Below, one piece after another: positions 34,818 through 37,277 of a DNA stretch of 64,000 bases. The notes under the pieces are model-generated. The model worked only from the letters and a program-made list of their open reading frames with translations, did not search any database and had not been told where the DNA came from. This stretch comes from Saccostrea echinata (taxonomy: Eukaryota), in assembly GCF_033153115.1 (NCBI RefSeq), contig NW_026889764.1:13950001-14014000 (forward strand), in the 5' to 3' direction. The position numbers were made by a program, and so were the translations under genes. The first letter of the stretch is position 1, and the number at the start of each line of letters is the position of its first letter.

Positions 34818-35625
34818 GTTGTTGTAGTAAAAAAAAAGGCAAAATTTGATTTCAATTTAAAGAAATAAACAAATGTTCGTCTTACCTTGCCGTGAGTAAT
34901 CCAAGAACAGAATTTCCATGTACTTGATATATTGATTTTACCATTAGTAATAATATATTAGGTAATTATAAGATCATGTTTAAACATGCAATGCATGTAA
35001 CACGTGTAACCTGTAACATGAAATGTGTGGTTTCTGTGTCATGTAGACCAGAAAGGATAGACAACTGAATTACCTTTAAATTAAAATCTAGGAGAGCCAC
35101 GAAGCTTTGGTTAATAAGAGGATGCAATTATATGTAAATAAAATCATTCTCTTCCAAGAATTATAAATCGATCGCGGATTAAGTACAGTACAACAAAAGA
35201 AAATTAAAGGATTTGCATGGGATGATGGATATATATATCAAGAAATCTATTGCTTATCGGCGTTTACTGACAAATTAACAACCATGGTTTTTATATGAAA
35301 TAAAGGAGCTAATATTTAGTGGATGTAAATATACGCATTTTTTCTTTGGGGGATGTAGGGATCCAATATTGATTCTTGCATAAAATCCTAATTTGAATTA
35401 TATGAACTCTCTCTGAAATATTTTTAATTTTTTTTAATTTCATTTCTGTGTAATAGTGGAACAAGTCAACATATTTGTCGTACGTTCCTTTCTCTTCTTT
35501 TTCTGAAAAGTTTAGAAGAATTTTTATAGGAAAATTCCCCGGTATCAGAAACAATTCTCTTCTTTATACGGATGTTTTCAATTTACTTTTATAACTCTTT
35601 TAAGTCATATAACAAAAGTTACCTT

Positions 35626-36444
35626 CTATAAGGCACACTTAAATTTGGATATTAATCTTTGACACTTTGGAGTGCATTTTGCGCGTTTCTGGTCCTCTCG
35701 ACATTGATATGGTTTTAGGCACTCTCTTGACCTTGAAGACTCTGGTACCTTAGGTGTCCTATGTTCACAGCAGAAAGATCTATAAAAGCAATTCCCGCCA
35801 TGGCTCCATGATGACCAAGTTGCCCATGATCCCCATTCTGTTCAAAACATTTATCTAAATAATGCTGAACCTAATCTTTAAAAAGGTCTACTTTTTGTCA
35901 TTATATTTTATAAGGACTGTTTTGTTTTTCTTGATGAGCTGTGAGTTAATAATTCAAAGTATAGCACGCAAATCTTATCCAAAAAACAATAAATTCATAC
36001 CTTTACAAGGACAAATTCGATATGCCATGCGATATTCTCTGCTGTTAAACAATAAGTATTTTATAAATGTATAAATAAAGAAATACAATATTAACCAAAT
36101 CAAAACCTGATATTCCATATGAATATCTGAACAACCTGTATGTGCATGCTACTCTTCTCTTCCAAAACCAACCAGTTAGTCTACAAGATTTCATAGCATA
36201 TGTCTCTTTTCTTGCACATTTCTGTCTCCAATCTTTATGAGGCGCATCGCAATGAACAACCCTAAAGAAGCGGAAATTGCTAAAGTATTTCGTTTTTTAT
36301 GCCCTTCTAATACAATATAAAAATGTACATGTTCAGGAAAATAAGACGTACAAAAAATGTCTTTTTTCTTGCTTACCCCTCCACTAAAATATGTAATGAT
36401 TCAAGGGTAATTAAAAGAACATTGATGGGGACATTGGCAAACAT
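35626..36444 (-). CDS. Gene D: small secreted Cys-rich protein, signal peptide + EMI-like domain + divergent TSP1-like domain (147 aa)
   Basis: Minus-strand exons 36444-36377, 36261-36136, 36038-36001, 35837-35626; 444 nt in frame. Translation: MFANVPINVLLITLESLHILVEG/VVHCDAPHKDWRQKCARKETYAMKSCRLTGWFWKRRVACTYR/EYRMAYRICPCK/EWGSWATWSSWSHGGNCFYRSFCCEHRTPKVPESSRSRECLKPYQCREDQKRAKCTPKCQRLISKFKCAL*. Intron phases (2,2,1) match gene C. An AG acceptor lies immediately before the ATG. Confidence 0.75.
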
Positions 36445-37277
36445 CTTCAAGAAACTATTGTCTGCGTGTCCCTCCTCTTTTTGCTGGAGGCATGTAGTAA
36501 ACTTGCATAACAAGTTGATTGTCACATTTGAGTATCACATTTTGTTTCTTGCATGCAATAGTTGCATTAACTGCAATCTAAAATATCCTATGAGATCAAT
36601 AAGAACTACATCTATTGGTATCTGTTTATGTCACTCTCTAAATTAAGATTTACTTAGATTCTTTAGTATTTATTTAATTAGACATCTAAAATAATGTCTG
36701 CAAACAGACTTAGAAGAATGTGTTTCGGTATTTCATCTTTGGATTAGTTTTTGAACTGATGTAAAATCACAATAAATCAAATGTTATCAAAATTATCAAA
36801 ACTACAATAAGAATCTAAGGAAATATGTGTCTGACTTTCTTGAAAAATATTTTCATCATGAACTGCTGATGGAATAAACAAGGTTAAAATTATATTTTTA
36901 CAGGGGAACATAGACTGGACTGGCGTTTTCATACATCTATCATTCTCAGTTTGTTATCAGTCAGTATGCAATAACAGCACAGGAGCTAATTTACTATTTT
37001 TTGACTGGAAATTGTCCTCTGACGTCATAATCATACGATTACACTACACAGTTCTCAAAAAATACTAGGAAAGAGAAGACAAAACACTTGAAGTCTCTTC
37101 TTTTCGTTTCTGTATGCCAATTTGTATTCCAGTCTTTCGAAATTAAGGAGAACAAAAATGAGTAGCACGGATAAATGTGTAGTCAAACAATCGAAGGACG
37201 TGCTAAATCGTTTCTCGATTTTATAGAAATTTTTTAATGTCATATCATACCTTGTACATACATGGAATATTTCATCC

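Follow-up and report, generated by a model that had tools for sequence, protein, structure and literature searches.

The minus strand of the window analyzed here (the whole 64,000-nucleotide stretch of Saccostrea echinata DNA, G000:C15:13950001-14014000, from an assembly of 923 Mb in 425 contigs with ~32% GC) carries a small four-exon gene, the mini-gene in what follows, which is a real and old tail-less paralog of its longer neighbors with a remodeled TSP1 repeat. Its 147 codons specify a leader, a Cys-rich head, and one terminal TSP1 repeat. Tentatively, and at what we judge to be close to an even chance, we posit that the product is a dispensable matrix protein of mucus or adhesive that lacks a tail.

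Gene Model

The first-pass annotation had proposed a hidden minus-strand gene for a protein of 147 aa and 14 Cys, and this gene is confirmed by its exons, its open frame, and its homology to the paralogs. Its features are as follows.

36377..36444, minus strand: exon 1, 68 nt; begins with the ATG, at 36444 rather than 36446; 23-residue leader; ends in phase 2
36136..36261, minus strand: exon 2, 126 nt; codes for the start of the Cys-rich head, with 4 Cys; begins and ends in phase 2
36001..36038, minus strand: exon 3, 38 nt; completes the head with 2 more Cys; begins in phase 2 and ends in phase 1
35623..35837, minus strand: exon 4, 215 nt; degenerate TSP1 repeat with 8 Cys and a short C-terminal extension
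35628-35626, minus strand: stop codon of the mini-gene, in exon 4
35617..35625, minus strand: splice donor after the stop, a possible start of a 3' UTR intron as judged from the letters; a contig match ends there

The three introns (115, 97, and 163 nt) are all GT-AG, with the donor of exon 2, GTTGTT, off the usual consensus. A GT donor does lie 3 nt past the stop, as had been claimed, and the intron phases (2, 2, 1) do equal those of gene C, described below. A stop this close to the donor would spare the transcript from junction-dependent decay under the 50-55 nt rule.

Neither the open frame nor its number of Cys is what local chance would give. At the local intergenic stop frequency, a frame of 147 codons would stay open with a probability of ~5e-5 (uncorrected for the choice of splice sites), and such a frame in local intergenic DNA would on average hold 4.3 Cys. 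The mini-gene has 14, with 6 in the head and the other 8, among them a CC pair, in exon 4. The GC content is 0.35-0.43 in the exons versus 0.23-0.29 in the introns. The best 9-residue hydropathy of the leader is 2.13, whereas the C, B, and A leaders reach 2.63-3.44. This leader, the least hydrophobic among the four genes, is predicted only weakly as a signal peptide, and secretion of the product is a prediction. By three genome searches (with the protein of exon 4, with the protein of exon 2, and with DNA) the mini-gene is single copy, copy counts of this kind being lower bounds. Just upstream of it, at 37267-37554, is a 144-nt tandem duplicate with 97% identity.

Ancestry and Inherited Charge

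Three genes on the opposite strand of the window share the front end of the mini-gene.

5709..8853, plus strand: paralog A; leader and head, 3 TSP1 exons, IgGFc-binding exon (PF17517, E 3e-57)
9470..13896, plus strand: paralog B; leader and head, 3 TSP1 exons, IgGFc-binding exon (PF17517, E 4.2e-57; also PF00090)
44216..45297, plus strand: front end of gene C, made up of the leader, a head on two exons, and the first TSP1 exon; the structural sister of the mini-gene

The mature mini-protein aligns to A, B, and C over their heads and first TSP1 repeats with scores of 114, 120, and 93, respectively (33-37% identity), none of which was reached in 2,000 shuffles. Likewise, a profile of the A, B, and C heads, from which the mini-gene was left out, gives exons 2 and 3 a score of 27.4 bits (0 of 1,000 shuffles). 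By these sequence comparisons, the mini-gene is an inverted paralog of the A/B/C front end, i.e., of the Cys-rich head and the first TSP1 repeat. Gene C, which continues into a long array of TSP1 exons and a region rich in Thr, is transcribed divergently from the mini-gene (head to head) at a distance of 7.8 kb; a six-Cys head and an intron between leader and head are common to these two alone, the A and B heads having eight Cys. The mini-gene would then have originated in an old inverted partial duplication of a C-like ancestor, in which the leader, the head, and the first TSP1 repeat were retained. Given that the frame, seven splice signals, and six head Cys survive at 33-37% identity, we infer that the gene was long selected as a protein.

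Could this product be a newly specialized antimicrobial peptide, i.e., a freed, cationic, Trp-rich head and repeat that damages microbial surfaces in mucus? It is small and has 28 K+R, 12 D+E, a pI of 9.5, a net charge of +18, 7 Trp, and 14 Cys, and bivalve immune peptides typically vary in whether intact copies are present (PMC10138031). However, the front ends of the long paralogs A, B, and C have net charges of +22, +21, and +17 and 4-8 Trp, so that the charge and the Trp content of the mini-gene are inherited, and the label “antimicrobial-peptide-like,” which had been drawn from the charge, loses its ground. The single copy, where an expanded cluster might have stood, and the lack of any Pfam family match also speak against this reading, which we consider improbable.

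The Head and the EMI Domain

The heads of A, B, and C (5709-6062, 9470-9845, and 44216-44689, plus strand) are Cys-rich modules of 54-60 aa. Those of their exons that were tested gave no Pfam match, and their only database relatives are 2 unnamed Logan reading frames, 63-65% identical to the B head exon, which run into an apparent intron and are uninformative on tails. Exon 2 of the mini-gene likewise has no Pfam match and no usable match in the Atlas, and modeled alone it reaches a pLDDT of 46.

The first-pass annotation had called the mini-gene head EMI-like, a label that fits loosely, by position and exon split. As in EMI proteins (PF07546; EMILIN/multimerin), the head is N-terminal, directly after the leader, and on two exons, and the phases of its split (2, then 1) equal those of a Pfam-matched EMI gene of this genome (L006). 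The EMI domain is described (PMC3342094) as having seven regularly spaced Cys and the motif WRCCPG(Y/F)xGxxC at its C-terminal end. In contrast, the mini-gene head has six Cys and 54 aa (versus ~80), and it lacks this motif and ends in C-x-C; A and B retain CC-x3-C. Because of the six Cys and the absent diagnostic motif, we do not count the mini-gene head as a member of the EMI family. An exon-by-exon EMI search of the genome gave 2 matches, none of them in this gene cluster; the head profile scored 7.9 bits against one spliced EMI domain, a value equaled by 60 of 1,000 shuffles, and the score of the pairwise comparison between head and EMI was reached by 742 of 2,000. In sum, the module that heads A, B, and C appears to be EMI-like and unnamed, and unnamed EMI-like head is the fitting term for that of the mini-gene too.

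The Terminal TSP1 Repeat

Exon 4 had been described as an atypical TSP1-like exon. Its Trp ladder and its likeness to other TSP1 exons in shuffle tests are those of a TSP1 repeat, but its Pfam score falls short and the CxxxCGxG motif is missing. Three overlapping W-x-x-W motifs place four Trp in register, giving the W-x-x-W-x-x-W ladder. A profile of 16 TSP1 exons of the window scores 20.2 bits on exon 4 with the composition correction off (0 of 1,000 shuffles), and the standard TSP1 scan, with the correction on, gives only -0.6 bits, which indicates that the repeat is strongly diverged. Pfam returns 0 families for exon 4 at E values up to 1, whereas the paralog exon at 10010-10204 gets 25 bits; CxxxCGxG and GGxxC are missing from exon 4 and present in 16 of 16 paralog exons.

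Which Cys of exon 4 corresponds to which in other repeats depends on the alignment. There are eight, and two alignments disagree over them: the HMM aligns RSREC to the R-x-R-x-C position, and MAFFT aligns it to the fourth Cys with a 10-residue deletion. A model of exon 4, built on a TSP1 alignment, is poor, with a pLDDT of 62 and no significant fold match; the best Foldseek rows are the TSRs of properdin and BAI1 (E 1.3-1.7), and the VIA Z is at most 2.9.

Set against the TSR (PF00090; group 1 of PMC2173040), exon 4 has the starting Trp ladder, the Cys after it, R-x-R-x-C as placed by the HMM, and a phase-1 start; it resembles the TSP1 exons of the window significantly relative to shuffles, and its nearest named Atlas clusters are of the TSP1 clan (0.83-0.88), which is a lead only. 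In contrast to the TSR, it has no Pfam match, lacks both CxxxCGxG and GGxxC, carries eight Cys where the TSR has six, holds four Trp in register, and stands at the end of its protein instead of inside an array.

Wider searches returned nothing. With exon 4, HMMER gave 0 matches at an E value of 0.001 against 1.84 billion representatives, and a word search among longer proteins gave 1 candidate and 0 matches; the protein collections searched are thin in bivalve proteins, and an empty result there does not show absence. PDB sequences gave 0 matches to exon 4 at an E value of 10, and pattern matches in metagenome contigs were confirmed in 0 of 228 cases for exon 4 and 0 of 233 for exon 2. The literature, searched by title and the start of the abstract, yielded no description of this head-plus-TSP1 family, and supplementary gene tables could name orthologs.

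Is the Short Form Original?

A recently truncated paralog had been suggested, along with a frameshift in a last exon one base short of symmetric. The paralog is indeed tail-less, but “recent” is unlikely. Profile scans of the mini-gene strand over 135 kb downstream (window plus flanks) found no TSP1 or IgGFc-binding (PF17517) exon, and the short form thus looks old; open stretches in 14000-35600, judged by eye, hold no convincing coding exon. As for the frameshift, exon 4 is, at 215 nt, one base short of a symmetric exon, but a single-base shift within it is ruled out except in the last 15 nt, and no shift gains more than 0.2 bit of TSP1 score. The contig of a relative (see below) spans exon 4 without gaps, and the length of 215 nt is therefore not an assembly slip. 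Given that the frameshift is so confined, that the relative is gapless, and that tail exons are absent downstream, a very recent truncation is unlikely. The absence of tail remnants favors a long life as a short protein, with a recent deletion of the tail as a possible alternative.

These results also bear on whether the annotation is incomplete. The product might be longer, if an allele reads through the donor into more exons, or different, if intron 2 is kept (~94 aa). The donor immediately downstream of the stop and an exon 4 that misses symmetry by one base fit this reading, as do two details of the contigs described below: the sole spliced contig keeps intron 2, and a contig-end difference missing from the list could hit the stop codon of the relative. 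In contrast, the empty 135 kb, the lack of a convincing coding exon in 14000-35600, and a frameshift that fits only the last 15 nt with no better TSP1 score argue against it, and we find an incomplete annotation very improbable.

Contigs and the Copy of a Relative

Contigs from one public run (X1), presumed to be RNA by guess only, were compared with positions 34500-37000, and 18 matched. The X1 copy is ~96% alike and of low depth (3.6-4.5). One contig joins exons 3 and 4 across the exact 163-nt intron, with matching ends, at a depth of 3.6; the same contig retains intron 2, and such retention would end the protein after 94 residues. A second contig carries the unspliced border between exon 4 and intron 3, and exon 1 has no cover. 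Of the three junctions that the first-pass annotation had singled out as a check (36377/36261, 36136/36038, and 36001/35837), only the last was seen, in 1 contig of 1 run. The match to the exon 4 contig of the relative breaks off at the donor that follows the stop, leaving 4 letters unmatched, which is a hint only. The exon 4 contig has 7 differences, 6 of them listed; the unlisted one is near an end and could lie in the stop.

Relative to the window copy, this copy has 13 listed exonic differences that change 12 codons (3 synonymous, 9 nonsynonymous or nonsense), with stops at codons 51 and 121 and the loss of Cys136; it is probably a pseudogene. A count of changes per site, bearing on the dN/dS check that was also proposed at first pass, indicates near-neutral divergence: 10 changes on 239 nonsynonymous sites versus 3 on 58 synonymous sites, and 8 in 144 intron bases, the counts being small, unpolarised, and from low-depth contigs. 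In simulations, 22% of neutral draws of 13 changes have at least two stops, and the frame remains open in ~50% of neutral lineages that have accumulated 10 changes. Because a neutral copy stays open about half the time, the open frame of the window is no proof of present selection. Moreover, given the two stop codons in so close a relative, the mini-gene is probably dispensable and may be dying.

Is the gene, then, already dead? A gene long selected, whether as a short or a long protein, could have lost its function before or around the split, with the window copy open by luck and its RNA leaky and partly spliced. The two nonsense codons, the lost Cys, and the near-neutral divergence of the relative are what this would predict, and the simulated frequencies, the retention of intron 2 at a depth of 3.6-4.5, the weak leader, and the stop-bearing TSP1 exons of gene C in this assembly are all consistent with it. 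However, the two stops and the Cys loss are all on the side of the relative, the window copy retains 14 Cys and all splice signals, and the relative is represented by a single set of low-depth contigs, which may contain errors. We regard a recently dead gene as the main rival reading, less likely than not.

A Proposed Role in Mucus or Adhesive

The reading that we prefer, a dispensable and tail-less matrix protein, is a prediction of function made from family knowledge only. In TSRs, stacked Trp and Arg form a positive face that binds glycosaminoglycans (PMC2173040), and oyster IgGFc-binding and TSP1 proteins are proposed components of mucus and larval adhesive (PMC6337334). In our model, long selection as a short protein would have remodeled the repeat, with the family motifs lost, two extra Cys gained to give an even count, and a short C-terminal extension added. 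The product would be a small, secreted, disulfide-bonded protein whose predicted Trp/Arg face binds the acidic sugars of mucus or adhesive. Without further TSP1 repeats or IgGFc-binding or mucin-like tails, it would not bridge as is proposed for its neighbors; it would instead coat or cap the polyanionic sites that the heads of those neighbors bind. The birth-and-death cluster would now be losing the mini-gene, which is intact in this genome but null in that of at least one relative. Mussel Cys-rich families often vary in this way between intact genes and pseudogenes (PMC10138031).

Two known systems help to place this model. With the oyster mucus and pediveliger adhesive proteins that combine IgGFc-binding (PF17517) and TSP1 domains (PMC6337334), the mini-gene shares the front end found in A and B, but it has neither an IgGFc-binding domain nor further repeats; that paper does not establish orthology of its proteins to A, B, or C. 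Like Mytilus CRP-I (PMC10138031), the mini-protein is small and Cys-rich and occurs in intact and pseudogene forms across genomes; in contrast, the Cys array and ancestry of CRP-I are unrelated, and its ~50 clustered genes and pseudogenes compare with a single copy here. In a bolder version of the model, a matrix front end, freed by the inverted partial duplication, was rebuilt as a stand-alone two-domain mini-protein with a rewired four-disulfide TSP1 repeat, serving as a cap or antimicrobial in mucus or larval glue, with intact and null alleles segregating; this version seems to us unlikely.

If functional, the mini-gene would represent in minimal natural form a large shellfish mucus and adhesive protein family, which has 114 IgGFc-binding matches in this genome, and its product, small enough to express, would reveal the targets of the head and first TSP1 repeat. 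If dead, it would be one more gene lost in the usual turnover of a birth-and-death cluster. In both cases the gene is real, and the protein collections searched yielded no homolog of it.

The Surrounding Cluster

Four TSP1 exons of gene C (47757-47948, 52031-52201, 48278-48444, and 51479-51652, plus strand) are damaged in this assembly: two have in-frame stops, one has a frameshift, and one has lost its last Cys; gene C may skip these exons, or it may be decaying too. Its tail includes a 383-codon Thr/Ser-rich, mucin-like open frame (55838-56989, plus strand). The 114 IgGFc-binding matches of the genome are in many cases clustered in tandem, and some have stops.

Gene D, a neighbor ~17-20 kb to the right of the window (L014:6921-9625, G000:C15), has an exon with an EMI-type CCPGY ending and the same phases as the last head exon; a first head exon for it was not found among 88 candidates. 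It also has exons resembling, by eye, the unnamed tail domain of gene C (57827-58366) and a chitin-binding CBM_14 domain. Three more TSP1 exons, which belong to another gene, lie ~120 kb upstream of the mini-gene (G000:C15:14107403-14111074, minus strand). GC-rich stretches at ~46420-46680 and 59100-59470 have, by eye, tRNA-like heads and are probably SINEs, and 15303-16232 holds three identical 300-nt copies at a spacing of 315 nt.
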